Below are positions 3 to 37,909 of a DNA stretch of 64,000 nt, piece by piece (position 1 is the first letter of the stretch; each line of letters starts with the position of its first letter). A program made the translations under genes and the position numbers. Location: the sequence record OR352954; one strand, 5' to 3'. The stretch comes from Escherichia phage AV124. The notes under the pieces are model-generated. The model searched no databases. It was not told the origin of the DNA and worked only from the letters and a program-made list of their open reading frames with translations.

Positions 3-194
3 AAAGATCTTGATCTTATCCATAACGTGGCCTTTTTGATTAGCGAGCTTGAAGAATATGTTGACGAACTAGATCTGAGCATCTATGATGACTACAGTGA
101 AATGAAATCAGCACAAAAAGAAGTGCTCAAATTATTGAAAAATCTCAGACGAAGGAGAGAACATGAAATTCAACGTAGACGATTTGGTCGCTAA
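3..194 (+). CDS. 3' end of an upstream gene (partial), unknown function
   Basis: Open frame from window edge to TAA at 192-194; acidic, helix-like translation; overlaps start of next gene. Confidence 0.3.
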   Translation, partial: KDLDLIHNVAFLISELEEYVDELDLSIYDDYSEMKSAQKEVLKLLKNLRRRREHEIQRRRFGR

Positions 195-1125
195 AAAACT
201 GGTAACCAAAAAGACTTACACCGAAGGCCCGTTCGCGGGTCTTTCTGTGCTGAAGTATAAGAACAATGTGTTCTGGGATAACCTGTGGCATACTGACCCA
301 CGACTGCTTGAGTGCCGTGGCATGGTTGTTGATGCAGAGGACAACGTTGTTATCTGGCCTTTCACGAAGATCTTCAACCGCTTCGAGAATAACACGGATG
401 TCCCTCAGGACCAGTTGGTATGCGTACCTCGTAAAATCAACGGCTTTATGGCAGCAATGAGTATTTACAATGGGGAGGTGATTGTATCTACCACAGGAAC
501 ACTTGATTCTGATTTTGCACAAATGGCAAAAGACAAAATCATTGGCTCTATGCCTGACGGAATGCTTGACTATTTCGTGAAGAACGCTGGACCTTGCACA
601 CTTATCTTTGAGATATGTGATGATAGCGACCCGCACATCGTCGCAGAAGAAGCAGGTGCTTATCTGATCGGTTGTCGTGTTCATTTAAGTGGTGGTATGC
701 TCCCAGAATGGGACCTTGATAAGGTCGCAAATCGTTATGGGTGGAAACGTGCTGGTTGGGACAACATGCTCTTCAGCGATGTTGTTAAGGCCTCTCAAAG
801 TGTTAACCATGAAGGTTTTGTTGTTCGCGATGTTGACACCAATGAGCTATTACTGAAAATCAAGTCTCCACATTACCTTGCGAAGAAATTCCTGATGCGC
901 GGGGGTGATAACAAGTGGGACATGATCTGGGATAACCCGAAAGAGGCCAAGAAGCGTATTGACGAAGAGTATTACGAGTTGCTTGACCATATCCGCGAGT
1001 ATTACTCTAAAGATGACTGGGCTGGGATGGACTCTCAAAAACGTCGTCAGGTTGTTGAAGATTATTTTGCGATTGAAGACCTCTTTGATCGCGATAGTCG
1101 TTTTTACGTTGGAGTTCAAAAATGA
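163..1125 (+). CDS. RNA ligase-like covalent nucleotidyltransferase (Rnl family)
   Basis: AGGAG RBS; motif I KINGF (KxNG), motif IV EGFVV, motif V LLKIK in correct order. Confidence 0.5.
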   Translation: MKFNVDDLVAKKLVTKKTYTEGPFAGLSVLKYKNNVFWDNLWHTDPRLLECRGMVVDAEDNVVIWPFTKIFNRFENNTDVPQDQLVCVPRKINGFMAAMSIYNGEVIVSTTGTLDSDFAQMAKDKIIGSMPDGMLDYFVKNAGPCTLIFEICDDSDPHIVAEEAGAYLIGCRVHLSGGMLPEWDLDKVANRYGWKRAGWDNMLFSDVVKASQSVNHEGFVVRDVDTNELLLKIKSPHYLAKKFLMRGGDNKWDMIWDNPKEAKKRIDEEYYELLDHIREYYSKDDWAGMDSQKRRQVVEDYFAIEDLFDRDSRFYVGVQK

Positions 1126-1466
1126 TTGTCTGGCTTGACGATTTAAGAGACCCTAAAGACTACGGTTATCCTGATGCATTGTGGTTCAAGACCTCTCAGA
1201 AATTTATGGATTTTCTTGATAATCGGTCAAAGTTCTATCGTTATGTCACAGAGTGGCATTTCGACAATGACCTCGGTGAAGATTCAGAAATGGAGGGCTA
1301 TGACTGCCTGTTAGCCTTGGAAGAGAAGCTTGTGTATGGGAAACTTCCTGTGCATGATGCTAAACTCTATGTCCACACGTCTAACCCTTCTGCTGCACAA
1401 AAGTTCATGCTTGCAAAAGAGAGCTTCTCGAAGTATCGTATTACGATCTTGAGAAACAATTACTGA
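1122..1466 (+). CDS. hypothetical protein
   Basis: ORF with ATGA start/stop overlap to upstream gene. Confidence 0.5.
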   Translation: MIVWLDDLRDPKDYGYPDALWFKTSQKFMDFLDNRSKFYRYVTEWHFDNDLGEDSEMEGYDCLLALEEKLVYGKLPVHDAKLYVHTSNPSAAQKFMLAKESFSKYRITILRNNY

Positions 1467-1475
1467 GGAGAAGAG

Positions 1476-1883
1476 ATGGAAAAGACTCTGATTATCCTGC
1501 GCGGTGTGTCTGGTGCTGGTAAATCTACAGTTGCAGATATGCTAGCAGAATGTTTGTGGCCTATCTGTGAAGCAGATAAATTTCACTACACGGAAGATGG
1601 TGTTTACGACTGGAAACCTGAAAATATCCAGGCAGCGCATAAATGGTGCCAAGATCAAGTAAAGGAAATGATGGAATGGAAATTTCGTAAAATCATCTTG
1701 TCTAATACTTCTACCAGTGAAAAAGAACTGAAACCTTATCTTGATCTCGCTGCGGAGAATGGGTATCGTGTTATCAGCCTAGTGGTCGAGAACCGCCACG
1801 GGAATGATTCTATTCACAGTGTTCCGCAGGAAACTCGTGATGCTCAAGAGCGTCGTCTGCGTAACTCATTGAAATTACAGTAG
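1476..1883 (+). CDS. small P-loop kinase (polynucleotide-kinase-like)
   Basis: Walker A GVSGAGKST near N-terminus; RBS GAGGAG. Confidence 0.4.
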   Translation: MEKTLIILRGVSGAGKSTVADMLAECLWPICEADKFHYTEDGVYDWKPENIQAAHKWCQDQVKEMMEWKFRKIILSNTSTSEKELKPYLDLAAENGYRVISLVVENRHGNDSIHSVPQETRDAQERRLRNSLKLQ

Positions 1884-1893
1884 GAGGAAATAA

Positions 1894-2670
1894 TTGAGGC
1901 GTTTAATTGTTATTAGTGGCGCTGGTTTCTCTGCCGAGAGTGGTGTCCGTACATTCCGTACAGATACTGACTCCGGTAAAGCTCTGTGGGATGAATACGA
2001 CCTTGAGGAGGTTTGTAACATACACGCCTTCCGTGGTAACTTCTACCATAAAACGCACATGTTTTATAACAAGCGTCGTGCAGAGTTACCAACGGTACAT
2101 CCGAATGCGGCGCATCTTCGCGTGGCTGAGTGGTACAAACGTTATCCTGGGCAGGTTGTTAACATGACGACTAACGTTGATGACCTTCTGGAACGTGCGG
2201 GTGTCCCTAAAGAAGATACTCTTTACATACATGGTTATCTGAAAGAGATCCTTGTTAAAGATGCTTTCACCAAGAAGATAAAGGTTGTCGATATTGGTTA
2301 CGACCAAATTGATCCTGATGATTATGATTGGTGTAAACCAAACGTAATTTTCTTTGGTGAAAATGCCCCGGCGTATGGACCTATGTATGATACCTTAGAG
2401 TCCTTGACAAACCAAGATCTTGTAATTGTTGTTGGTTGCTCAAACACGGTAATCAACTTCAACTGGGAGTTGTTCCCTGCGGTTGTGCGGGGGACTAAAG
2501 TTGTTGTTGTCAATCCTGCTATTAGGTATGATGAACAAATGATGTATGAGAATGCGGGTGTTCTTGTATATCGTACCGGAGCTGTTGATGCCTTTAATAA
2601 TCCCGGCCTTATCAAGATAGTTGAGAATCACCTTGAAGGTAAGACACCATTGCAAAGCAAGGAGAAATAA
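1894..2670 (+). CDS. Sir2-family NAD-dependent deacylase / ADP-ribosyltransferase-like protein
   Basis: GAGFSAESGVRTFR (Sir2 GAGISxxSGIPxFR), NVDDL, IHG, PNVIFFGE motifs. Confidence 0.65.
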   Translation: MRRLIVISGAGFSAESGVRTFRTDTDSGKALWDEYDLEEVCNIHAFRGNFYHKTHMFYNKRRAELPTVHPNAAHLRVAEWYKRYPGQVVNMTTNVDDLLERAGVPKEDTLYIHGYLKEILVKDAFTKKIKVVDIGYDQIDPDDYDWCKPNVIFFGENAPAYGPMYDTLESLTNQDLVIVVGCSNTVINFNWELFPAVVRGTKVVVVNPAIRYDEQMMYENAGVLVYRTGAVDAFNNPGLIKIVENHLEGKTPLQSKEK

Positions 2671-3983
2671 TGCAACAAGTAAACAGTACACTGTACGCCC
2701 TTAATAAAGATGGTTCTTTCCAGTGTTGGAAGGTGTTTATTGCTGGTAATCAGGTAGTTGTAGAGTTTGGCAAGGTTGGTGGTAAGAAGCAACAAAAGGT
2801 TACCACCTGTGAACCGAAGAACGTTGGACGTTCTAACGAAACCACCGCAGAACAGCAGGCATTGGTTGAGGCGGTTTCCAAATGGGAGAAACAGGTTCGC
2901 CTTGGATATCGTGACGATACAAGCAAGCTTGAGCAGGAAGAGAACTTCTCCCCAATGCTGGCCCATGACGCAATTAAACGTTCAAAATCAATAGTTTATC
3001 CTGCATACGTGCAGCCTAAGCTAGATGGTGTACGTGCTCTGGTTACTCTTGATGCAGATGGCTTCCCACAATTCAATAGCCGTGGTAACAAACTGTATCC
3101 TGTACCGCTTGATTCTGAGTTGTCTGAACAGGTTAAATCCCTTTCTGAGCATTCCGGGTTTGACAAATTCGATGGGGAGCTGTACATTCATGGTCTGAGT
3201 CTGCAAAAGATTGTCGCTCTTGCTAAGAAGTGGCGTACACCAGAGCAGATCGAAGAAGAGATTGAAAAGGATTATCAGTCTGACCTGAAGCGCCATCAGA
3301 AAGCTATTGACAATGGGGAAGACAGTTGGAAAGATTTCGATGGTGATGTTTACTCTGTCGCAATCGAACCAGTTAAAGATGTTGATCGTTATGGCGGCTA
3401 TTCAAGCCTTGACCTAGAGTACCATATCTTCGACATTCCGTGTTCAAATAAACCTTGGATGATTAACGATGGGATTTCAGACTATACAGATAAGGAGTGT
3501 CGATACAAAGACCTTATGGACACTGACCACTTCACCTCTGTTATTAAAGCAGATAAAATAAATGTGGTCCAAGGGAATGTCTTTGACACTGAGGATGAGG
3601 TTAAGCAATCAATCGGACATTTTATGCAGCAAGGCTTTGAGGGTGCTATCATCCGAAATTTCAAAGGTGTCTATGAATTTGGTCAGAGATCTTCTGATCT
3701 CCAGAAATGGAAACTTTTCCAAGACGGTGAGGCTAAAGTCCTTGATTCTGTGGAAGATAAGAACGGTGAGGGTGTATTACTCTGCGAAGAGAAAGATGGT
3801 ACACGTTTCAACTGTAAAATGAAGGGAACCCACGCAGAGAGATCTCAGGAACGAATGCTCCTGCTGGTGGGTAAGTTTATTAACTTCACGTTCCAGGCTA
3901 GAACTGATGATGGTGTTCCTCAGTTTGCCATAGGCCAAAGCGTTCGTGAACTCGATACATTAACATGGGAACCTACTTATTAG
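2670..3983 (+). CDS. ATP-dependent DNA ligase
   Basis: Motif I KLDGVRAL, motif III FDGELY, motif IV EGAIIRN, motif V LQKWKLF. Confidence 0.8.
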   Translation: MQQVNSTLYALNKDGSFQCWKVFIAGNQVVVEFGKVGGKKQQKVTTCEPKNVGRSNETTAEQQALVEAVSKWEKQVRLGYRDDTSKLEQEENFSPMLAHDAIKRSKSIVYPAYVQPKLDGVRALVTLDADGFPQFNSRGNKLYPVPLDSELSEQVKSLSEHSGFDKFDGELYIHGLSLQKIVALAKKWRTPEQIEEEIEKDYQSDLKRHQKAIDNGEDSWKDFDGDVYSVAIEPVKDVDRYGGYSSLDLEYHIFDIPCSNKPWMINDGISDYTDKECRYKDLMDTDHFTSVIKADKINVVQGNVFDTEDEVKQSIGHFMQQGFEGAIIRNFKGVYEFGQRSSDLQKWKLFQDGEAKVLDSVEDKNGEGVLLCEEKDGTRFNCKMKGTHAERSQERMLLLVGKFINFTFQARTDDGVPQFAIGQSVRELDTLTWEPTY

Positions 3984-18344: not shown

Positions 18345-20657
18345 TTGATCAATACAGTTGTGAAGAGTGATGGCAGTGTGGTTCCATTTGAACCAGAACG
18401 TCTAAACAAGGCCGCTATCTTTGGTGATGACGGCAATGGTAACTGGTCGTACATCTCAATGGATGCATATAAGCGACTGTATGACGGCTGCACCACTCGT
18501 GAAGTTAACCAGGCATTGATCGACGCCTGTGTGAGTCGTAAAGACGAAGCCCATTCACGGATGGCTGGGCGCGTCCTGATTGGACAAATCTACAAGGAAG
18601 CTTTTGGTGGATTTAAGAAAATTCCAAGCCTTGCCGAGTTTTACCAGGACATGGTGACGCGTGGGTACTGGGAAGAAATGGGTTATACTGGGCCGGAGCT
18701 GTTAAGCTTTGATCAAGTCATTGACCACAGCAAGGACCTGAGTTATGGGTATGCTGTTCTGAAACAGTTCCGGGATAAGTATGGTATCAAAGATAACATC
18801 AACGATATCCTGTTCGAATCTCCTCAGATGATGTTTATGGGTATTGCTATGGCTGTTATGAAGAATATGCCATTATCCCGTAGAAAGAATGACGTCATCC
18901 GACTGTATACGTATCTCTCTGACCTTAAGATCAATGCACCAACTCCGTACCTGAATGGTCTGCGTACTGGACGTACAGGATACGCGTCCTGCTGCATCAT
19001 AAAGGCTGATGATACAGCGAAAAGTATTGGAGTTGCTCGTGAAGTAGCGTACACTATGACGGTAGCACAGGCAGGGATTGGTTATTACCTGTCCTCCCGC
19101 TCTATCGGCGATGGTGTTCGTGACAATACGATCAAACACATGGGTAAACTCCCGTATTACCGTGGAATTGATGTTGGTGTTAAGGAAAATCGTCAACAAT
19201 CCCGTGGTGGTTCTGCAACGGTGTCTTTCCTTGCGTTAGACCCGCAAGTTGAAGAACTGATGCGTCTGCGTAATCCGATGACGGTTACCTCAAAGCGTAT
19301 CAATACGATGGACTATTCGATTGGTGTCAACCACTCGTTCATGAATCGAGTAGCTAAGAATCTGGACTGGATGTTGGTGTCATATAAGGATGCTCCTCAG
19401 TTGCATGAGGGTATGTTCCGAATGACAATGCAGGAGTTTGATGCTGAGGTTGCCCGTGTAGCAGCAGATACTAAGATTCAAAAGACTTGGGTGAAGGCTC
19501 GTGATCTGGCAATGGAACTGATTACCCAACGTGCTGAAACTGGTCGTCTTTATGTTTACTGGCCTGACGAAATGAACCGTCATACGCCATTCCTTGAGAC
19601 AATTTACTCATCTAACTTGTGTCAAGAAATCTGTCTGCCAACAAAAGGGTATACAGATATGCGCAATATTTTCAACCCGACCATCGATGATGGTGAAGTT
19701 GCATTGTGCTTTATCGCCTCTCTGGTTGCTGGTCGTGTTTCCGAAGAAGAATACGAGGATGTTGCTTACTACACCGTCCTGATGATCGACAACGTTATGG
19801 ATATCATGGATTATCCGTATGAGAATATGAAGTACACAGCAGAATCTCGTCGTTCGATTGGTGTTGGCCTGACCAACCTTGCACACTACATCGCGAAACA
19901 CAAAGTCGCGTATGGTTCTCCTGAGAGCAAGCAGTTGGTTCACGATCTGGCAGAACTGCATAGCTTCAGTCTGCATAAGGCAAGTCTGCGACTGGCTAAA
20001 GAGCGTGGTGTTGCTCCGTGGATGAATAAGACTAAGTATCCGCAGGGTTGGTTGCCTATCGATACCTATAATAAGGCAGTTGATAGTGTTGTGAAGAATC
20101 CGAGCCTGAAGCAGGACTGGGAAACTTTGCGCCAGGAAATCATCGAAAATGGTGGTATCCGTAACAGTGTTCTGGAAGCTTATATGCCGAACGAAAGTTC
20201 ATCATTGGCTACCAACACAACAAATGGCCTGTATCCGGTACGTGACCATGTGATCTTCAAGAAATCCCCTCAAGGCTCTGTGCTGTTTATCGTGCCTGAG
20301 TATGAAGAGCTGAAGAAATATTACACGTCGGCTTGGGATATCGATACGAATGACTTGATTGATATCTATGCAATCATTCAGAAGTTCGCAGGGCAAGCAA
20401 TTAGTGCGGATCTTTACATCGACTATACCCAGTTGCCTGATGGTAAGATTTCCATGAAACAACAACTGGGATATCTGATCCGCGCCACGAAGATGGGGAT
20501 GAAGACATGGTATTACCTGAACTCCAAGGTTGGGGCTGGAGACTCCCTCACTGAGGAACTTCATGCTAAGGCAAAAGCTGAGGAAGAGACAAGAGCTGTT
20601 GCACCGTTTATCGCCGGGGATACTGAAGACCCTTATTGCGAAAGTTGTTCTTTATAA
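18345..20657 (+). CDS. nrdA: ribonucleotide reductase class I large subunit
   Basis: TTG start with RBS; SNLCQEICLP active-site motif; C-terminal CESC pair. Confidence 0.85.
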   Translation: MINTVVKSDGSVVPFEPERLNKAAIFGDDGNGNWSYISMDAYKRLYDGCTTREVNQALIDACVSRKDEAHSRMAGRVLIGQIYKEAFGGFKKIPSLAEFYQDMVTRGYWEEMGYTGPELLSFDQVIDHSKDLSYGYAVLKQFRDKYGIKDNINDILFESPQMMFMGIAMAVMKNMPLSRRKNDVIRLYTYLSDLKINAPTPYLNGLRTGRTGYASCCIIKADDTAKSIGVAREVAYTMTVAQAGIGYYLSSRSIGDGVRDNTIKHMGKLPYYRGIDVGVKENRQQSRGGSATVSFLALDPQVEELMRLRNPMTVTSKRINTMDYSIGVNHSFMNRVAKNLDWMLVSYKDAPQLHEGMFRMTMQEFDAEVARVAADTKIQKTWVKARDLAMELITQRAETGRLYVYWPDEMNRHTPFLETIYSSNLCQEICLPTKGYTDMRNIFNPTIDDGEVALCFIASLVAGRVSEEEYEDVAYYTVLMIDNVMDIMDYPYENMKYTAESRRSIGVGLTNLAHYIAKHKVAYGSPESKQLVHDLAELHSFSLHKASLRLAKERGVAPWMNKTKYPQGWLPIDTYNKAVDSVVKNPSLKQDWETLRQEIIENGGIRNSVLEAYMPNESSSLATNTTNGLYPVRDHVIFKKSPQGSVLFIVPEYEELKKYYTSAWDIDTNDLIDIYAIIQKFAGQAISADLYIDYTQLPDGKISMKQQLGYLIRATKMGMKTWYYLNSKVGAGDSLTEELHAKAKAEEETRAVAPFIAGDTEDPYCESCSL

Positions 20658-20664
20658 GTTGTAA

Positions 20665-20684
20665 GGGGCTTCGGCCCCGTTTTT
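20665..20684 (+). terminator. rho-independent terminator (GGGGC-UUCG-GCCCC + U tract)
   Basis: Hairpin ggggcttcggcccc followed by gttttt. Confidence 0.5.
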
Positions 20685-20695
20685 GAGGAGAGAAA

Positions 20696-21784
20696 ATGGC
20701 AGTTTTTAACGTAGAAAACACCGCACATAAGACTGGGGATTACCCACTGTTCCTTGGTCAACAGATGGGGATGTATGACTCCATCAATAAGAAGTACCCG
20801 CAACTATTTGATCTGTATAAAAAGCAGAAAGAACAGGATTGGTCAGAAGATGAAGTTGAACTGAGCCAGTCTATCACTGACTTTGCAACTTGCAGCAAAT
20901 CCACTTACGACGTCATGGTGCAGACCCTGATGTGGCAATGGGAAGCTGATAGCGTTGCAGCACAGTCTATCATCTGTCTGTTTGCACCCTTCATCACGAA
21001 TAGTGAACTGTTCGCCATGATGATGAAGCAATCAGAGATTGAAGTCTTACATGCTCTGACGTATTCTGATATTGTTCGCCAATGTCTGCCTAATTCTCGC
21101 CAGATCATTGAAGATATCCAGAACAACCAGGCAGTCCTTGAACGCTCTGGAGTCATTGTCAAATTCATGCGTGAATTAGAAATCCTCGGTGCTCGATACC
21201 GTATTGACCCGGACTCTGTTGACAAAGAAGAGATCCGTCGAGGAATTCTGAGAGCGATGTTCTCCCTGTTGGGTCTGGAAGGTATTGAATTCATCTCTAG
21301 CTTTGCCTGTACGTTCGCTCTTGCAGAACAGGGCGTCTTTGTCCAAGTAGGCCAGCTTGTGCAGAAAATTATGTTGGATGAGATGCTGCATACCAAGATG
21401 GATTTCGGGGTTATCGATATCCTTCTGAAAGACCCGGTATGGAAGGCAAGCTTTATCGCAATCAAACACGAGCTGAAAGCAATTCTGGATGAAGTTCGTA
21501 TCAATGAATATGGATGGGGCGATTATCTCTTTAGTGAAGGACGTGCGATCATCGGTTTGAACGCTCCGTTGCTGAAAGATTGGACTGACTGGAACTGTGC
21601 TCCGATCTACGATTACTACGGCATTGAAAAAGATTTCGTAGCACCAAAACGTGATCCTCTCCCGTTCATGGATGTTTGGATGAATCCTTCCAAGCAACAG
21701 AATGCGAATCAGGAAATGAGTAATACAGATTATAGGCTTAATGCTATAAACGACGACATAGGGGATGATACGTTTGATTTTTAA
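20696..21784 (+). CDS. nrdB: ribonucleotide reductase class I small subunit
   Basis: Two ExxH iron-ligand motifs (EVLH, EMLH); adjacent to nrdA. Confidence 0.8.
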   Translation: MAVFNVENTAHKTGDYPLFLGQQMGMYDSINKKYPQLFDLYKKQKEQDWSEDEVELSQSITDFATCSKSTYDVMVQTLMWQWEADSVAAQSIICLFAPFITNSELFAMMMKQSEIEVLHALTYSDIVRQCLPNSRQIIEDIQNNQAVLERSGVIVKFMRELEILGARYRIDPDSVDKEEIRRGILRAMFSLLGLEGIEFISSFACTFALAEQGVFVQVGQLVQKIMLDEMLHTKMDFGVIDILLKDPVWKASFIAIKHELKAILDEVRINEYGWGDYLFSEGRAIIGLNAPLLKDWTDWNCAPIYDYYGIEKDFVAPKRDPLPFMDVWMNPSKQQNANQEMSNTDYRLNAINDDIGDDTFDF

Positions 21785-22349
21785 TCTCGGTATTTGCGAT
21801 CTTCCCAGCAGGGACAAAGATGGTAAATTGACGCCCCACTATTCCAGATGGGTCAACATGTTAAGGAGGTGTTATGACCCTAAGTATCAGACAAGAAGAA
21901 ATTCTTATGCAGATACAACTGTTTGCCAAGAATGGTTGACATTCTCTAAATTTAAAGAGTGGATGGATCTTCAAGATTGGGAAGGAAAGGACTTAGATAA
22001 AGACCTTCTTGGGGATGGTACTATTTATTCACCATCTACGTGCGTATTCGTAACGCCATTAGTTAACCAGTTTACTAAAAGAAGCTCTGCATCTAGAGGC
22101 GACCAGCCTCTTGGTGTACATCTTAAAAGAAATGGCAGATACGGGTCTTGTATAAGGAAATATGGAAAGTTAGAGCATCTTGGATATTTCGAGAACGAGG
22201 AGGCTGCACATGTTGCTTGGCAAAGAGCCAAGATTGCTTATGGGAAGGAACTTTGTCACTTACAAACAGATGAGAGGTCTATCCTAGCGCTCACACGTTA
22301 CATTGCGAGGATAGAAGAAGACCTATTATTGAAAAGGAGAACAATTTGA
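21765..22349 (+). CDS. AP2-domain homing-endonuclease-like protein
   Basis: YSRWVNMLRRCY...CQEW N-terminal motif and AP2-like GRYGSCIRKYGKLEHLGYFENEEAAHVAW; sits between nrdB and glutaredoxin. Confidence 0.55.
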   Translation: MIRLIFNLGICDLPSRDKDGKLTPHYSRWVNMLRRCYDPKYQTRRNSYADTTVCQEWLTFSKFKEWMDLQDWEGKDLDKDLLGDGTIYSPSTCVFVTPLVNQFTKRSSASRGDQPLGVHLKRNGRYGSCIRKYGKLEHLGYFENEEAAHVAWQRAKIAYGKELCHLQTDERSILALTRYIARIEEDLLLKRRTI

Positions 22350-22609
22350 ATCTGAAGAATTCCACCTTCACCATTTATGGTAAGGATAACTGCTCACACT
22401 GCGTCCGTGCTAAGGAGTTTGCCATTGCAAACGGGATCGAGTATATCTACCTTACGCTAGGGAAGAATTATACCAAGGAAGAGCTGGTGGAGCAATGTGC
22501 CCCGGTTATTCCGCGCACCGTCCCGCAGATTTTCCGTGAGACGGACTCCTCTACGGAGTACATTGGGGGCGCTGACGAGTTCATTGCGTTTGTAAAAGCA
22601 AACAAATAA
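22346..22609 (+). CDS. glutaredoxin/NrdH-like redoxin
   Basis: CSHC CxxC motif near N-terminus; TTG start with AGGAG RBS. Confidence 0.6.
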   Translation: MNLKNSTFTIYGKDNCSHCVRAKEFAIANGIEYIYLTLGKNYTKEELVEQCAPVIPRTVPQIFRETDSSTEYIGGADEFIAFVKANK

Positions 22610-22620
22610 GAGGGTTTGTC

Positions 22621-24699
22621 GTGAAGGTTGTTAAAAGAGATGGACGTGTTGAAGATTACTCGGCTGAGAAAGTGACACGAGCGGTGAAAGCCGCTCTGTT
22701 AGCCTCGGGTCTTGACCAGGAAGTGGCTGATGAGAAGGCCCGTGGAATTGCTCAGAGAACCTTCAGCCTCTTCATGGCGACCCCTGTACGAAGTGTGGTA
22801 GATTTTCACCGGGAGGTTGAAAACCTCCTGATGGAAGACCCTGATCTTCGTGACGCTGCTCGCTGTTACATAGAATACCGTCATGACCGTGACAACGCTC
22901 GTGAAGGAAAAGGAAAACTGTATGCAGACATCACTGGATTCTTGGATCAATCGGCTGAAGAGTTTACCCGCGAGAATGCCAATAAACCAAGTTCCATCGT
23001 AAACACGCACAGGGACCTCTTAGCGGGGATTTTGAGTAAGCATGTGGCATTGACCCAGATACTTCCCAAAAACCTCTCAGAATGGCATACAAGCGGCTAT
23101 GGGCACATCCATGACCTTGATTACCTGGTAAGCCCTCTGACGAACTGTTGCCTGGTGAACTATCGGGACATGTTAGAGAACGGGTTTAAGATCGGTAATG
23201 CCCAGATTGAGAAACCAAAATCAATCGGTGTGGCTACCACGGTCTTGACCCAAATCATCCAGGCGGTTGCCTCAAGTCAGTATGGTGGGCAGACCTGCGC
23301 CCATATTGACGAGGGACTCAAGCAATACGTCGAAATGAGCTTCATGAAGAACGTGAAGCAGTACCGAAGTCACCGCAATGCATACGGCCCGACCAACAAG
23401 TTGGTGTACGATGCGATGCAGACCCTGATCTACCAGGTGAATACACTGATGAGCGTCAACGGTCAATCGCCGTTCATTACCATCAGTTTGGGGCTTGACA
23501 CCTCCATGTTTGGGCGTATGATTACTGCAAACTACTTGAAAGTCCACAAAGAAGGGCTTGGGAAGGACAAAGTAACCCCGGTATTCCCGAAGGTTGTGTT
23601 CTTCCTGCAAGAAGGTGTGAACATGAACCCGGAAGACCCGAATTACGATCTGAAACAGTTGGCTATGGAATGTTGTGTAGAGCGAATCTACCCGGACTTC
23701 ATCTCTGTCCCACTGAATAAGGAAGTCACTGGGTCAGCGGAAGGCAAGGTCACGAGTATGGGTTGCCGATCATTCTTGTCTAAATTCACCACGGAAAATG
23801 GTGAAAAGTACGACGGAAGGTTCAACCTGGGTGTTGTGTCGGTGAATCTGCCGATGATTGCTGCCGAAGCGAAGCAGAAAGGCGAGAGATTCTTCCCACT
23901 GCTCCGTTATCACATGGACATGGCCTATGAAGCGCATATGGTTCGTGTGAAACGGCTGATGGATGTGAAGGCATCTCAAAACCCGACTCTGTTCATGGAA
24001 GGAGCGCTGGCCCGGTTGAGACCTGATGAGCCGATCAGTAAGCTGTTCTTCAACGGTTATGCATCGATCAGCATCGGATATGTCGGCCTGGCGGAGGCTG
24101 TGGACATCCTCAACGGCAAAGAGGACAAGGAATATGCTATGGGAATCCTCGGGTACATGAAACTGGTGTGCGATGAGTACAAAGCCATGACGAACCTGTC
24201 TTTCAGCCTTTATGGGACGCCTGCGGAGAGCTTGTGCTACCGCTTTGCCACCAAACTGAAAGAAAAGTTCCCTAACTTCATAGAGAGGGATTACCTGACG
24301 AACTCTTTCCACCAACCTGTCTGGGTGCACAGCGATCCTTTCAGTAAGTGGGACTACGAATCGGGCTTTGCAAACATCAGTAATGGTGGAAACATTGGAT
24401 ATGTGGAAACTGCCAATTTGCGTGACAACTTGCTGGCTCTTGAATCCCTGATCGATTATGGGTACAAGAAGATTCCTTACTTCGGAATCAATCAGCCTGT
24501 GGATCAGTGTCTTAAATGCGGTCACAGTGGTGAGTTTACCGCCACGGCGAAGGGTTTTGAATGCCCGGCCTGCGGAAACCACGAAGAGGGGACGCTTTCG
24601 GTTATCCGTCGTGTATCTGGGTATTTATCTGCACCCAATTCTCGACCTTATAACAAAGGGAAGATGCAGGAAGTGGTTCAGCGGGAGAAACATCAGTGA
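22621..24699 (+). CDS. nrdD: anaerobic ribonucleoside-triphosphate reductase
   Basis: Glycyl-radical motif RVSGY and C-terminal CxxC...CxxC zinc ribbon; GTG start. Confidence 0.85.
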   Translation: MKVVKRDGRVEDYSAEKVTRAVKAALLASGLDQEVADEKARGIAQRTFSLFMATPVRSVVDFHREVENLLMEDPDLRDAARCYIEYRHDRDNAREGKGKLYADITGFLDQSAEEFTRENANKPSSIVNTHRDLLAGILSKHVALTQILPKNLSEWHTSGYGHIHDLDYLVSPLTNCCLVNYRDMLENGFKIGNAQIEKPKSIGVATTVLTQIIQAVASSQYGGQTCAHIDEGLKQYVEMSFMKNVKQYRSHRNAYGPTNKLVYDAMQTLIYQVNTLMSVNGQSPFITISLGLDTSMFGRMITANYLKVHKEGLGKDKVTPVFPKVVFFLQEGVNMNPEDPNYDLKQLAMECCVERIYPDFISVPLNKEVTGSAEGKVTSMGCRSFLSKFTTENGEKYDGRFNLGVVSVNLPMIAAEAKQKGERFFPLLRYHMDMAYEAHMVRVKRLMDVKASQNPTLFMEGALARLRPDEPISKLFFNGYASISIGYVGLAEAVDILNGKEDKEYAMGILGYMKLVCDEYKAMTNLSFSLYGTPAESLCYRFATKLKEKFPNFIERDYLTNSFHQPVWVHSDPFSKWDYESGFANISNGGNIGYVETANLRDNLLALESLIDYGYKKIPYFGINQPVDQCLKCGHSGEFTATAKGFECPACGNHEEGTLSVIRRVSGYLSAPNSRPYNKGKMQEVVQREKHQ

Positions 24700-30091: not shown

Positions 30092-30203
30092 TTATTTGCC
30101 TCATATTATTGCTGATCTTCGTGGTGGAGGTTTCGAGGTTGATGTCGTAGAAGTTGAACCCTCTATGCAAGGCATTAGAGCACGATTGTATATTACATGG
30201 TAA
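29925..30203 (+). CDS. hypothetical protein
   Basis: ORF ends immediately before strong terminator; overlaps MTase frame by ~167 nt. Confidence 0.45.
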   Translation: MSAASKMRGIAEIANAAIPPEMNQLYDNMVEGIHQCAKKGLLGMGMVIDLPDHLLDYLPHIIADLRGGGFEVDVVEVEPSMQGIRARLYITW

Positions 30204-30230
30204 ACCTGCTTCGGCAGGTTTTTTTTTTTC
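30203..30230 (+). terminator. rho-independent terminator
   Basis: aacctgc-ttcg-gcaggtt hairpin followed by T10. Confidence 0.7.
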
Positions 30231-31442: not shown

Positions 31443-31944
31443 ATGAGATCCATTGTTCCGGTTAAGGGCTTGGAGGGATTATACTCTGTTAACTTTTTCG
31501 GAGCTGTGTATTCTCATCGGTCTGAAAAATTTCTGAAACCAGAAAGAATGCCAGACGGATACCTACGTTATACACTAATTGATGAGAGGGGCAGAAAAAT
31601 ACGTAGGCAGGCCCATATCTTTACCTTGGAGTCCTACCCTGGAGGTATTTATCAAGAAGAGGTCAACCATAAGGACCACGTCAGGGATAACAATTGGATT
31701 GGAAACTTAGAGTGGGTGTAATGTAGAGCACGGGAAATCAAGAAGCTTCATAATTACATTTCCCGATGGCAGAAAAGAGAAGGTATTCAACCTCAGTAAG
31801 TTTTGCAGGGACAATGATTTACACTTGGGGGCAATGCATGAAATGGCAACGGGAAGGATTAGAGAAGGAAGATCCCTAAGAACTCACCACAAAGGTTATT
31901 TCTGTGAATATGACCAGGACTATACAGAATCAGGAGAATGGTAA
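31443..31944 (+). pseudogene. disrupted HNH homing endonuclease (NUMOD4/HNH N-terminal ORF plus out-of-frame C-terminal segment)
   Basis: 31443..31721 encodes GLEGLYSVN...VNHKDHVRDNNWIGNLEWV then stop; a +1 frame stays open ~73 codons to 31944. Confidence 0.45.
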
Positions 31945-33200
31945 TGCAAGATAAGAAGATCTATTTGGTTGGTGGAGCCGTAAGGGACTCCTTGCTCGGT
32001 AGGCCCGTGCATGACAAGGACTATGTTTGTGTCGGGTACACACACGAAGAGATGATCGCCGCCGGATTTACACAGGTTGGTGCAAATTTTGCAGTATACC
32101 TTCATCCTGAAACCAAAGAAGAATACGCACTGGCCCGTACTGAGCGCAAAACGGGTGAGGGCCATACTGGCTTTGAGACCTTCTTCAGCCCGGATGTAAC
32201 TCTGGAAGAGGATTTATCGCGTCGTGACCTGACGATCAATGCGATGGCTAAAGACATGGAAACAGGATTTATCATTGATCCGTTCAACGGTATGCATGAC
32301 CTGTGCAACAGGACTCTTCGTCATACCACTTCGGCATTCATGGATGACCCATTACGTATCCTGCGACTTTTCCGATTCAAGGCCCAGCTGGGTGATGGTT
32401 GGACTGTCGATCATGAGACATATAGTCTCGCTTACAACAACCGTTACCGCCTGGCAGAAATTAGCCCAGAACGCAAATGGAAGGAGATGGAGAAAGCTCT
32501 TAATTCCAACAACTTTATGAGTTATGCTTACGAAATGGCCGTGCTTGGTGAACTCCCAGAGCTAGATGCCCTTCATGGTGTAGAGCAACCACCTGAGCAT
32601 CATCCAGAGGGTGATGCCTTCATCCACACCCTGATGTGCCTGGAGCAGGCAGACAAAACCTTTTGCTCTCCTCAGGTGAAATTTGCGGTGCTGTGCCATG
32701 ACTTTGGAAAGGCGATCACTTTCCGTAAGTACGGTAATCTCCTCGGTCATGAAGAAGCTGGTCTTGATCCTGTGCGGACGCTGTGCAGTCGAATTCGAGT
32801 TCCTAACGAATTCAGGGATATTGCACTGTACGTGACAGAGCACCATACTCGTGTGCATTGCATTTTGGGCCGTGGGAATAATAAAGGAATCAAGCCACGT
32901 TCCATGATGAAGCTTTTCGAAGCCGCAGGTAACGTGGCTAGTCAGAAGACACAGGACAAGGTGTTTGCCTTAGCAGACGCTTGTTTCTGCGATGCCCGTG
33001 GTCGTGGTGCCACGCACGCAGATAAGGAATACCCGCAAGGAAAAATTCTCCTTGATGCTTTCGATGCGGTTGTAAATACGGACAGCAAGGCGGTATCTTC
33101 AGCAATGCTGGAGAAAGGAAAAAGCGGCAAGGAGATCGGTGAGGCGATCCGTGTTGCACGTATTGATGCAATTCGTAATGTCCTTAAGGAGAGATCATGA
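31938..33200 (+). CDS. CCA tRNA nucleotidyltransferase (Pol-beta head + HD domain)
   Basis: N-terminal GGAVRDSLLGRPVHDKDYV motif; C-terminal HD-type region. Confidence 0.75.
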   Translation: MVMQDKKIYLVGGAVRDSLLGRPVHDKDYVCVGYTHEEMIAAGFTQVGANFAVYLHPETKEEYALARTERKTGEGHTGFETFFSPDVTLEEDLSRRDLTINAMAKDMETGFIIDPFNGMHDLCNRTLRHTTSAFMDDPLRILRLFRFKAQLGDGWTVDHETYSLAYNNRYRLAEISPERKWKEMEKALNSNNFMSYAYEMAVLGELPELDALHGVEQPPEHHPEGDAFIHTLMCLEQADKTFCSPQVKFAVLCHDFGKAITFRKYGNLLGHEEAGLDPVRTLCSRIRVPNEFRDIALYVTEHHTRVHCILGRGNNKGIKPRSMMKLFEAAGNVASQKTQDKVFALADACFCDARGRGATHADKEYPQGKILLDAFDAVVNTDSKAVSSAMLEKGKSGKEIGEAIRVARIDAIRNVLKERS

Positions 33201-34173: not shown

Positions 34174-34385
34174 TTTTTGCCATTATCTATATTATTCTCA
34201 GTATTATCACAGCGGGAGCTGTAATTTATTACACCCTTCGTGAACAAGATTTGCTGAGGGTAGAAGATATTTTAACTTCCCTGATCTGCGGTGTTTTTTG
34301 GTGGTTAACTATTTTATGCGGCGCCCGTGCTTGGATAGGAAAGCATCTTAATAGCAGGACAGTTGTGTATAGGAGAAAGAAATAA
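34170..34385 (+). CDS. small membrane protein
   Basis: Two TM-like helices; ATGA overlap. Confidence 0.4.
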   Translation: MIFAIIYIILSIITAGAVIYYTLREQDLLRVEDILTSLICGVFWWLTILCGARAWIGKHLNSRTVVYRRKK

Positions 34386-34876
34386 TGAAGACACGCATGT
34401 ATTGCGTAGTAAATCAGTATATTGCAGGTATCCATGCCGGAATTCAGTCTGCTCATGCCATGACTGAAGTGTTCTTAGACTACCCACAGCGTAGGAACAA
34501 GGCCAGCAACCTGTTGTGGGACTGGGCGGATAGCGATAAGACGATGATCGTCCTTAATGGTGGCTACCAGTCAAACTTACAGGACCTTTGTTCAAAATTG
34601 CGGTTTCTCAGTGGCACTTACCCGTGGGCATTTTTCTGTGAAGAACACGATGCTCTAAACGGGGCAATGACAGCAGTTGCTGTTGTACTGCCGGAGTATA
34701 TGTACAACCCACAATACATGGAAGTTACGGATCTCGTATATCGACCAGGCCAACTCGTAGGGCCGCAGATTGCTAACCAGTACCGGGACGAGCTGGGCAA
34801 TGTGGTCCACAACTACACCCAAACAGAGAAAGACTTGATCACCATGATCAAATCCTTCCGCCTGAAAGGCGAATAA
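34385..34876 (+). CDS. hypothetical protein
   Basis: ORF. Confidence 0.45.
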   Translation: MKTRMYCVVNQYIAGIHAGIQSAHAMTEVFLDYPQRRNKASNLLWDWADSDKTMIVLNGGYQSNLQDLCSKLRFLSGTYPWAFFCEEHDALNGAMTAVAVVLPEYMYNPQYMEVTDLVYRPGQLVGPQIANQYRDELGNVVHNYTQTEKDLITMIKSFRLKGE

Positions 34877-34877
34877 T

Positions 34878-35252
34878 ATGAATGATGTTCGTGGTGATAC
34901 TCTCAAGGTCGGCGACTCAGTTTATATTTATTTCGGGTACAATGAACTAAAACCTGGTATTGTAAAGCAGATCCGTGGTAAGCTGGCTAAGGTGCTGGTT
35001 GATGCATACCCTAACCGGGAAGACGACGAGAGTCGTTATTCCCTATCTAAGTGGAAACCTGGTGTCTGCATGATCAAGGCTGATGAGCCTACAGGTTGGT
35101 ATCCCGACGAGGTTATCCTACTCTTAGAAGAGATCCGCAGGTTGCGGGATGAGGCCCCTAGTAACAAAGAAGGTTTACCGACTAAACAACTATGCCAATA
35201 CCTCTTGAATTATTGGGATAGAAAACGACCATGTAACCTAGTCTGTTCATAA
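34878..35252 (+). CDS. hypothetical protein
   Basis: ORF. Confidence 0.45.
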   Translation: MNDVRGDTLKVGDSVYIYFGYNELKPGIVKQIRGKLAKVLVDAYPNREDDESRYSLSKWKPGVCMIKADEPTGWYPDEVILLLEEIRRLRDEAPSNKEGLPTKQLCQYLLNYWDRKRPCNLVCS

Positions 35253-35261
35253 GGAGAGATA

Positions 35262-36332
35262 ATGGAAAAGTTTGAAGTGATGCGATGCTATTCCGGTAGC
35301 CTCGCTTATGGCACAAATCTTCCAACTAGTGATGTGGATATTCGGGGTCTGTTCTGCGCCCCACCTAAATTCATCCGCACGCCGTTCTTTAACATCAAAG
35401 AGCAAACCTTGGAAGATGAAGAGGATGGGAAGATTTATGAGTTGACAAACTTCATGAGATTGTTTTCAGAGATGAACCCCAACATCATTGAACTGATGTT
35501 TGTCGATGACAAAGACATTTTACAAACCTCTGAAGTTTATGAATATCTTCGCACAATGGCCCCGGCACTGCTGACCAGTAAGGTAGCGTTCTCCTTCTCT
35601 GGGTATGCGATGGCACAGCTTAAACGTATTCGCGGTCATGATAAGTGGATCAGCAATCCGCAGCCTGAAGAAAAGCCTACGCAAAAAGAGTTCTTCCGAT
35701 TAGTTCACAACTATAGTGAGAACGAATTCCTTGCCGGGGCAATTAAGCACGATCGCTTCATGGAAGCAATGAACAATCTCAACGATATGTGTATCCTTGT
35801 ACCTTATGGGAACGATATCTATGGGGTGATGGAAAACTTCAGTAGCTCAGGGATGTTCAATGCTAACGGTTCAATTCGCCATGTTGACTATCAGCAACTT
35901 TCTGACTCTGACAAGCGGAGAAAACCTGTCTTTATTGTCAAATATTTGGCAGAGGAACACAAACAGGCCAAAGAGAAGCATCGTAACTATTGGACATGGA
36001 AACAGAACCGAAATGAAGTTCGTCACCAGCTCGAAGTTGATTTTGGTTATGACACGAAACATGCGATGCACCTTGTGCGCCTGATGCGTATGGCAGAAGA
36101 GATTCTTTCTGATGGGAAGGTCCTAGTGAAGCGTCCTGATGCTCAGGAACTTCTCGACATCCGGGCAGGTAAGTGGACTCTTGACGAACTGCTCTCTTGG
36201 GCTGATGAGAAGGACCGTTATATTCGTGAGGATCTGTACAAAAAGACACAGCTTCCTAAAATGGCGGATCTTGACCTGTTTGCTAGGGTTCTCATGACGG
36301 CTCAGGATATGTGTTGGAGTAAACTGGTATGA
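35262..36332 (+). CDS. Pol-beta-superfamily nucleotidyltransferase (RlaP-like)
   Basis: N-terminal YSGSLAYGTNLPTSDVDIRGLF (GS...D.D motif). Confidence 0.45.
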   Translation: MEKFEVMRCYSGSLAYGTNLPTSDVDIRGLFCAPPKFIRTPFFNIKEQTLEDEEDGKIYELTNFMRLFSEMNPNIIELMFVDDKDILQTSEVYEYLRTMAPALLTSKVAFSFSGYAMAQLKRIRGHDKWISNPQPEEKPTQKEFFRLVHNYSENEFLAGAIKHDRFMEAMNNLNDMCILVPYGNDIYGVMENFSSSGMFNANGSIRHVDYQQLSDSDKRRKPVFIVKYLAEEHKQAKEKHRNYWTWKQNRNEVRHQLEVDFGYDTKHAMHLVRLMRMAEEILSDGKVLVKRPDAQELLDIRAGKWTLDELLSWADEKDRYIREDLYKKTQLPKMADLDLFARVLMTAQDMCWSKLV

Positions 36333-36700: not shown

Positions 36701-36937
36701 ATGAGCTATGGGCCACTGACCGCAGAGCAGGCTAAGATCCTGCAAGACCGTTATTATGAGCAGCAAGGTATCAAGAAAGTTGTCTGGCCTTCTCCCGGTG
36801 ATGGTGATACCGGAACTGTGAAATGCATGCACGACGCTTGTCCTAATTGTGGTGGCACGGGTGTCAGAAAAGATGGCACTGGTTTATGCGTTCACGGCAT
36901 CTCTTGCCCTTGCCCTAAATGCAGCTTTAAGTGCTGA
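36701..36937 (+). CDS. Cys-rich zinc-binding-like protein
   Basis: CMHDACPNCGGTG...CVHGISCPCPKC. Confidence 0.4.
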   Translation: MSYGPLTAEQAKILQDRYYEQQGIKKVVWPSPGDGDTGTVKCMHDACPNCGGTGVRKDGTGLCVHGISCPCPKCSFKC

Positions 36938-37876: not shown

Positions 37877-37909
37877 AAAAAACCCGGCGATTGCCGGTTT
37901 TTTTTTTAT
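37877..37909. terminator. bidirectional rho-independent terminator
   Basis: A6-cccggc-gatt-gccgg-T10; plus-strand genes end to the left, minus-strand genes to the right. Confidence 0.65.

Follow-up and report, generated by a model that had tools for sequence, protein, structure and literature searches.

An insertion-bearing RlaP-family nucleotidyltransferase encoded near a CCA-adding enzyme in Escherichia phage AV124, with a candidate role in tRNA end repair

The RlaP gene and its product

A stretch of 64,000 nucleotides from Escherichia phage AV124 (sequence record OR352954), hereafter called the window, carries a gene on its plus strand at positions 35262 to 36332 whose product we analyzed as a nucleotidyltransferase of the RlaP family. 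The window is from a Vequintavirinae/Mydovirus-type myophage, and the 5-kb region around the RlaP gene has 90–92% identity to Klebsiella phages K18PH07C1 and KB57 and Proteus phage Mydo. An earlier note, made by inspection of the sequence, had given the gene as an open reading frame of 356 amino acids with an ATG start, and our analysis reproduced its limits. The ribosome-binding site is a strong one, with its Shine-Dalgarno sequence placed 5 nucleotides ahead of the ATG, where it shares bases with the upstream gene's stop codon. The gene and the parts of its product are as follows:

35251..35256, plus strand: Shine-Dalgarno sequence AAGGAG, read from the sequence
35262..36332 (stop codon included), plus strand: RlaP-family nucleotidyltransferase gene, 356 amino acids, ATG start (open reading frame, Pfam, PHROG)
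35262..35636, plus strand: N-terminal Pol-beta nucleotidyltransferase domain, amino acids 1–125, with G12-S13, D24, D26 and the third carboxylate D55
35637..36011, plus strand: subfamily-specific insertion, amino acids ~126–250 (hhalign, occupancy, AlphaFold2, extent of the Pfam match)
36012..36329, plus strand: C-terminal helical (KNTase_C/HEPN-like) domain, amino acids ~251–356

That the product is a Pol-beta nucleotidyltransferase of the RlaP-like kind, as the earlier note had suggested, was borne out by sequence searches, active-site conservation and a predicted structure, and assignment to the RlaP family (PF10127) is supported by these comparisons. The Pfam RlaP model matched with 55.5 bits against a gathering threshold of 23 (E 8.7e-15), the match being confined to amino acids 8–124 and to model positions 23–141 of 249, while PHROG 388 (“nucleotidyltransferase”) matched the whole protein (4.5e-79). 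Pfam NTP_transf_2 was below threshold for the protein (16.3 bits versus 21). A word-indexed search returned 1385 homologues at E ≤ 1e-3, a number which indicates that the reading frame is not a chance one, and an exhaustive search that took in 1.84 billion cluster representatives returned 5794 at E ≤ 1e-3, including 617 at E ≤ 1e-30. The family identification is not new, since annotated “nucleotidyltransferase” genes in Mydo- and KB57-like phages encode proteins with 97–98% identity to it, and Mydo gp113 already carries the annotation “putative nucleotidyltransferase; PF10127”.

The N-terminal GS...D.D motif that the earlier note had singled out (YSGSLAYGTNLPTSDVDIRGLF) is present, and its residues are highly conserved. 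An alignment of 32 sequences of 51–97% identity (alignment A1) shows no variation at G12, S13, D24, D26, E54 and D55 or at a number of positions in the C-terminal part. Conservation was also counted from an alignment of 120 divergent representatives, each of which stands for one 50%-identity cluster. In that count G12, S13, D24 and D26 are at least 90% conserved and D55 is 75–90% conserved, as are, at the level of at least 90%, the C-terminal residues R250, N251, R254, E258, D264, K266, H270, R273, R291 and D293. The third carboxylate, D55, aligns with the third Asp in RB43 NrdC.11 and in one canonical RlaP. This conservation points to an active enzyme and, as judged from the alignments, the protein is a catalytically intact member of its family.

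RlaP also appears to be an intein host. In at least 13 cluster representatives (P0121, P0123, P0126, P0129, P0139, P0142, P0160, P0185, P0206, P0208, P0242, P0247 and P0255) an intein-like insertion of ~320–390 amino acids is located exactly inside the invariant GYD|TKH motif. One insertion, that of P0121, was read from end to end; it begins with Cys, carries the LAGLIDADG-like “VLIAGDGS” and ends in HGN with Thr after it, all of which are features of inteins. Functionally critical sites are the usual locations of inteins.

Predicted fold and the subfamily-specific insertion

An AlphaFold2 model built from alignment A1 (predicted local distance difference test score, pLDDT, 91; predicted template modeling score, pTM, 0.72) has the transferase fold, and it matches known nucleotidyltransferase folds. 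Its best matches by Foldseek in the PDB were the kanamycin nucleotidyltransferase ANT(4') (probability 0.99 over ~140 columns), LinB, MNT and HalB; the matches to a CD-NTase and to HalB had E values of 0.13 or higher. ANT(4') and the MNT/HEPN-type proteins share with AV124 RlaP a transferase core followed by a helical, HEPN-like domain, whereas identity to them is only 15–17%, the TM-score is ~0.2–0.3, and their substrates are antibiotics or proteins. Neither by fold nor by sequence was there a full-length match to a solved structure in the PDB copy searched, which lacks the PfRlaP crystal structure, and nothing meaningful came from searching PDB sequences with either the protein alone or the A1 profile.

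The earlier note had described a long helical C-terminal region, and this was correct in part. The C-terminal part is helical in the model (helices 230–248, 252–261, 265–284, 294–301, 307–328 and 337–355), but it is not a single long helical region, as amino acids ~140–228 form an alpha/beta insertion with strands at 145–150, 177–183, 186–191 and 224–228.

Comparison with other phage proteins clarified this architecture. Searches of viral predicted structures in BFVD gave 30 matches at E ≤ 1e-3, in which short phage “nucleotidyltransferases” of 230–290 amino acids align over the whole core with target-normalized TM-scores up to 0.82. The Pfam RlaP model is matched in full by Bacillus phage Thurquoise gp138 (250 amino acids, positions 20–249) and Gordonia phage RayTheFireFly gp64 (261 amino acids, positions 19–248, 125 bits). 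In hhalign, the A1 profile matched these two proteins with probabilities of 99.0% (E 3.5e-18) and 98.4% (E 7.4e-15), respectively, in blocks at amino acids ~4–125 and ~250–352 of the query, with nothing opposite amino acids ~126–250 in either canonical RlaP. Both domains align, the helical domain at the C terminus is homologous to that of the canonical RlaPs, and the motif R-x-EL-x3-[FY]G[YF][DN]TK is common to all three proteins. The difference is that the canonical proteins have no equivalent of amino acids ~126–250 and match the whole Pfam model (~20–249). On these alignments, AV124 RlaP is a canonical RlaP core of transferase and helical domains interrupted by an insertion of ~125 amino acids, and the interruption accounts for the Pfam match being partial.

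The frame of the insertion is conserved, with the motifs GHDKWxNPQP and KxHxNYWxWKxNRN flanking a variable alpha/beta sub-insert at amino acids ~150–220, a region in which occupancy and conservation are low among the 120 representatives. In the C-terminal domain region, the conserved residues are R250, N251, R254, E258, the run G262-Y-D264-T-K266-H267, H270, R273, R291 and D293. The arrangement R250-x4-H255 in this domain resembles the Rx4-6H motif of HEPN RNases, but an active HEPN RNase was rejected because relatives have Ser or Gly at H255.

The other phage RlaP considered, T4 NrdC.11 with its RB43 orthologue, is likewise encoded in a genome that also encodes RNA ligases. Its transferase domain aligns with that of AV124 RlaP (27% identity over amino acids 7–122, E 1e-12), and in both proteins Pfam covers the N-terminal half only. 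In contrast, the C-terminal halves were not aligned by BLASTP, and NrdC.11 has no neighboring CCA enzyme in RB43.

Distribution of insertion-bearing RlaPs

Relatives of AV124 RlaP were found in 345 phage records, the carriers including Vequintavirinae, 121Q/Rak2-type phages, Lak jumbo phages and phiCbK-like phages, with T4-like NrdC.11 related by the N-terminal domain only. A scan of prokaryotes with one genome per species (185,579 species) gave only 5 contigs, all assigned to metagenome-assembled genomes, and with them no operon setting from a cellular genome. Given these numbers, the subfamily appears essentially viral.

Some relatives are considerably longer, at 528–674 amino acids, and all six of those checked (P0151, P0193, P0197, P0216, P0162 and P0176; an example is locus L099 4238–6262) are RlaPs fused to a C-terminal RNase_T domain, a DEDD 3'-5' exonuclease. 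As predicted from its domains, the fusion is a pairing of trimming with addition at the 3' end. The P0151 fusion is on short contigs, and Pfam found nothing in its neighboring genes.

The CCA-enzyme neighborhood

In the window, the RlaP gene lies downstream of a gene for a CCA-adding enzyme, in a run of genes between two terminator-like hairpins:

30202..30221, plus strand: terminator-like hairpin with a T-run, probable upstream boundary of the unit (function suggested by a consensus scan)
31938..33200, plus strand: CCA-adding enzyme, class II tRNA nucleotidyltransferase with HD domain (Pfam PolyA_pol 1.4e-20, HD and PolyA_pol_RNAbd; PHROG 2244 4e-147)
34385..34876, plus strand: PTH2-like hydrolase, 163 amino acids, tentative peptidyl-tRNA hydrolase 2 fold (Pfam match below threshold; PHROG 3668 “hydrolase”)
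34878..35252, plus strand: DUF7205 gene, directly upstream of RlaP (Pfam 1.1e-43)
37884..37897, no strand assigned: bidirectional terminator-like hairpin, probable downstream boundary of the unit (consensus scan)

The hairpins bracket tightly packed co-directional genes that run from the CCA enzyme through small genes, the PTH2-like hydrolase, the DUF7205 gene, RlaP and further small genes to an endonuclease VII-like gene, and phage Mydo has an annotated terminator at the site equivalent to the downstream hairpin. From this layout, RlaP is probably co-transcribed with the CCA-adding enzyme and the PTH2-like hydrolase.

The same order on one strand, CCA enzyme, (PTH2-like), (DUF7205), RlaP, was found in the window and in 25 fetched loci, in all of which the CCA enzyme is encoded 1.0–3.8 kb upstream of RlaP. 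This conservation extends over considerable divergence, as identity to the AV124 proteins in the 25 loci goes from 98% down to 46% for RlaP and from 94% down to 38% for the CCA enzyme. The PTH2-like gene is present between the two in 17 of the 25, and a DUF7205 gene is situated ~350–390 nucleotides upstream of RlaP in the closer relatives, with a 69-amino acid version in loci L101 and L102. At locus L101, a T4-type Pnkp (AAA_33 + HAD_PNKP) is encoded 5 kb upstream of a CCA enzyme, a 160-amino acid protein, DUF7205 and RlaP. At L006, genes for a Metallophos phosphoesterase, an AAA_33 kinase, a CCA enzyme and RlaP follow one another, uninterrupted by any annotated gene of another family, and the last two overlap. 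Among complete phage genomes, the numbers of records with a homologue of at least 60% identity are near equal, RlaP having 67 and the CCA enzyme 69.

The PTH2 call for the product of 34385–34876 is only suggestive. Its Pfam score was 17 bits against a threshold of 23 (E 0.007), and the best PDB match of a nine-sequence profile was archaeal Pth2 (2zv3; E 0.043). In this protein, H24 and several Gly residues are invariant.

Just downstream of RlaP, at 36701–36937 on the plus strand, a 78-amino acid Cys-rich protein is encoded that has a DnaJ-like CxxCxGxG motif (CPNCGGTG) and no Pfam match.

We also noted that RlaP genes recur loosely near ribonucleotide reductase (nrd) genes. Thurquoise gp138 is ~1 kb downstream of nrdA/nrdB with four small genes between (L094 1–3312), the T4/RB43 homologue is itself named nrdC.11 (L002 4004–4990), and in the window nrdA, nrdB and nrdD (18345–24699) are 10–17 kb upstream of RlaP on the same strand. 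This proximity may merely reflect the clustering of early nucleotide-metabolism genes.

Candidate RNA-repair genes elsewhere in the genome

A second group of genes with predicted functions in RNA repair is tightly packed at the left end of the window:

163..1125, plus strand: T4 Rnl1-type RNA ligase, candidate sealing partner (Pfam RNA_lig_T4_1 48.5 bits versus 28.3; PHROG 562 4.4e-66)
1122..1466, plus strand: cREC_REC cyclic-phosphate-processing receiver domain protein, candidate for 3'-end healing (Pfam PF20274 64.3 bits versus 27)
1476..1883, plus strand: AAA_33 P-loop kinase, candidate polynucleotide 5'-kinase (Pfam AAA_33 38.1 bits versus 27)
1894..2670, plus strand: Sir2, directly after the RNA-repair module
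2670..3983, plus strand: ATP-dependent DNA ligase, after Sir2

The Rnl1-type ligase carries a motif I-like K-I-N-G, and the kinase has 45% identity to the L006 kinase, which is encoded directly beside the CCA enzyme–RlaP pair. The Rnl1-type ligase, cREC protein and kinase of the window are ~34 kb from RlaP, whose operon-level partner in the window and the 25 loci is the CCA enzyme. Rnl1-type ligases are more widespread than RlaP, with 621 phage records. The AV124 ligase has 99.4% identity to that of Klebsiella phage VLCpiM5b and only ~72% to those of the KB57 group, which, set against the 97–98% identity of RlaP to the same group, indicates that the genome is mosaic.

The close relative KB57 has 16 tRNA genes, which are outside the stretch that matches the window, and no tRNA genes were found in the 64-kb window. 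Close relatives, KB57 among them, also encode another RNA ligase (PF09414, KLHGTN motif), which follows a Macro-domain protein that bears the annotation “phosphatase” (L098 32418–34479; KB57 139417–141478), at a position just past the right end of the window. By their domain matches, these two represent a putative second RNA-repair pair in the genome.

Proposed function in tRNA end repair

Passages in two later papers credit the naming of RlaP to Burroughs & Aravind (2016), after its association with RNA ligases (PMC12776372, PMC7824862). A December 2025 preprint (Carruthers, Fatma & Huang, bioRxiv) characterized two “cluster 1a” members, PfRlaP of P. fluorescens and PaRlaP of P. aeruginosa (PMC12776372). 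These enzymes add one or two nucleoside monophosphates (NMPs) onto RNA 3'-OH ends with little specificity for the nucleoside triphosphate (NTP), they favor Mn2+ and mimics of cleaved tRNA, and they leave synthetic DNA, genomic DNA and proteins unmodified; deoxyadenosine triphosphate (dATP) is accepted, efficiently by PfRlaP (PMC12776372). A tRNA from which one anticodon-loop nucleotide is missing can regain aminoacylation when RlaP acts ahead of ligation, and the crystal structure has an N-terminal transferase domain and a C-terminal helical domain, with the terminal helix packed back on the transferase domain (PMC12776372). T4 NrdC.11 was placed in cluster 5 of the family with its function unknown (PMC12776372).

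AV124 RlaP is in the same Pfam family as these enzymes and has the same arrangement of a Pol-beta domain with three acidic residues followed by a helical domain, and its chemistry is presumed, by analogy, to be the same addition of one or two NMPs to RNA 3'-OH, with a preference for Mn2+. The settings differ in that the Pseudomonas genes are in RtcB-RtcA operons, whereas the AV124 protein is viral, has the ~125-amino acid insertion, and is linked to a CCA enzyme with no direct link to a ligase.

We hypothesize, with a probability of roughly 0.6 and by homology to the Pseudomonas enzymes, that AV124 RlaP would carry out untemplated addition of one or two nucleotides to RNA 3'-OH ends in phage tRNA repair. 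The hypothesis starts from four observations described above, namely family membership, the conserved active site, the fold and the conserved gene neighborhood. The likely co-transcribed CCA enzyme and PTH2-like hydrolase, together with the RNA ligase, cREC protein and kinase of the genome, point to phage tRNA repair as the role. From these we infer the RNA substrate, the number of nucleotides added, the tRNA target and a role in counter-defense.

In the proposed mechanism, D24, D26 and D55 would hold two metal ions and the NTP, and the cleft between the transferase and helical domains would take the RNA 3'-OH end, so that one or two untemplated nucleotides from NTPs could be joined to a broken or trimmed end. 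The clients are probably tRNAs that have lost nucleotides from their ends. Two options can be envisaged. In the first, the 3' tail would be refilled before the co-transcribed CCA enzyme rebuilds CCA, and in the second, the anticodon loop would be refilled before the phage ligase module seals it. In either case, translation would survive host nucleases that target tRNAs.

The first option would give RlaP and its neighbor complementary tasks. Class II CCA-adding enzymes are likewise members of the Pol-beta superfamily that perform template-independent addition to RNA 3' ends in tRNA repair. They differ in having a PolyA_pol head and an HD domain and in adding a defined C-C-A to a tRNA that ends at the discriminator base, whereas RlaP adds only one or two nucleotides with little NTP specificity. 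By Pfam, the head domain (PF01743) is absent from AV124 RlaP and present in the neighbor at 31938–33200. The discriminator base cannot be replaced by a CCA-adding enzyme, whereas on our hypothesis an RlaP could supply it. The 3'-tail option gains interest from the finding that Cas12a3 immunity cuts tRNAs 2–4 nucleotides from the 3' end, reaching as far as the discriminator base, viral counter-measures being unknown according to the authors (PMC12851939). A more specific proposal, which we put forward as tentative and on balance unlikely, is that the CCA enzyme, PTH2-like hydrolase, DUF7205 protein and RlaP constitute a phage tRNA 3'-tail repair kit with the insertion as an acceptor-end recognition module. 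RlaP would refill the missing nucleotide(s) ahead of the rebuilding of CCA by its neighbor enzyme, while freeing blocked acylated ends would fall to the PTH2-like hydrolase.

Evidence against the hypothesis and other explanations

Several of our findings weigh against a function in tRNA repair. The transcription unit was drawn only from consensus scans, the PTH2 assignment of the neighbor is below threshold, and the RNA ligase is in a different operon ~34 kb upstream of RlaP. In addition, the characterized enzymes are bacterial and of cluster 1a, and the AV124 protein is connected to them only through Pfam membership and the intermediate phage RlaPs. There is also a second large lineage, in which 63 metagenomic loci (L024–L088) and L003–L005 have the rigid gene order gp32, UvsX, RlaP, a 172-amino acid protein, a 152-amino acid protein and UvsW, with no CCA enzyme within 10 kb of RlaP. 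UvsX is immediately upstream of RlaP in 60 of the 63 loci, the RlaPs linked to it are 43–51% identical to the AV124 protein and also bear the insertion, and the 172- and 152-amino acid proteins have no Pfam match.

This lineage speaks for a different explanation, that the enzyme acts with UvsX, UvsW and gp32 at nucleic-acid 3' ends, either RNA primers or DNA ends, in phage DNA replication and recombination. The exonuclease fusions would suit DNA ends as well as RNA ends, PfRlaP uses dATP efficiently (PMC12776372), and canonical phage RlaPs are encoded near nrd genes, as in Thurquoise and T4. However, synthetic and genomic DNA were not modified by PfRlaP or PaRlaP (PMC12776372), and the neighbors kept in the lineage of the window are related to tRNA (CCA enzyme, PTH2-like) and none is a replication gene. 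The 63 loci may also be close kin, in which case the rigid order may stem from the shared ancestry of related phages and the clustering of early genes and not from function. We consider a replication role improbable.

An offensive or regulatory role was also considered, in which 3' tailing of host tRNAs or other RNAs would block aminoacylation, in the way of MenT/AbiEii-type toxins, or mark them for decay and in that way aid host shut-off. Untemplated 3' addition with little NTP specificity is the very chemistry of RlaP, and PfRlaP acting on substrates with intact ends is expected to reduce the yield of functional tRNA (PMC12776372); a passage in PMC11541572 describes MenT3 as extending tRNA acceptor ends and inhibiting translation. 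However, the genes linked to RlaP are ones that restore tRNA (CCA enzyme, Pnkp, kinase/phosphoesterase and RNA ligase) and not nucleases or toxins. Pfam returned no AbiEii/MenT-type family for the protein, and PADLOC-DB v2.0.0 (2023), which may lack newer systems, returned no family at E ≤ 1. We regard this role as quite improbable.

Nucleotidylylation of a target other than RNA (a small molecule or a protein, such as an AMPylated host HEPN toxin), as by ANT(4') and MNT, or the making or mimicry of an immune signal in the manner of HalB, which takes up the earlier note's idea of nucleotide signaling or its antagonism, is very improbable. In its favor, ANT(4'), LinB, MNT-HEPN complexes and Hailong HalB head the matches among solved structures, the C-terminal domain is HEPN/KNTase_C-like, and NCBIfam MntA (NF047752) gave a faint match (13.9 bits, E 0.036). 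That score is below the cut-off of 60, the protein has 356 amino acids against ~100–140 for an MntA-type protein paired with a HEPN toxin, and no adjoining HEPN gene was seen.

Implications for phage tRNA repair

Overall, our data point to tRNA repair as the probable function of AV124 RlaP. This matters because among the main targets of bacterial anti-phage immunity are tRNAs, which anticodon nucleases and, as recognized more lately, tail-cleaving Cas12a3 attack. To our knowledge, apart from T4 Pnkp/Rnl1 and decoy tRNAs, little has been learned of how phages counter such attacks. The first RlaP biochemistry dates from late 2025 and is on bacterial enzymes only, and the AV124 gene stands for an insertion-bearing subfamily that is large (617 cluster representatives at E ≤ 1e-30) and mainly viral. 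What our analysis adds is modest, and consists of this viral subfamily, its neighborhood of CCA enzyme and tRNA 3'-end functions, and the exonuclease fusions and inteins. The conserved partnership with the CCA enzyme offers a concrete, testable model for how phages may repair tRNA ends that are short of nucleotides.

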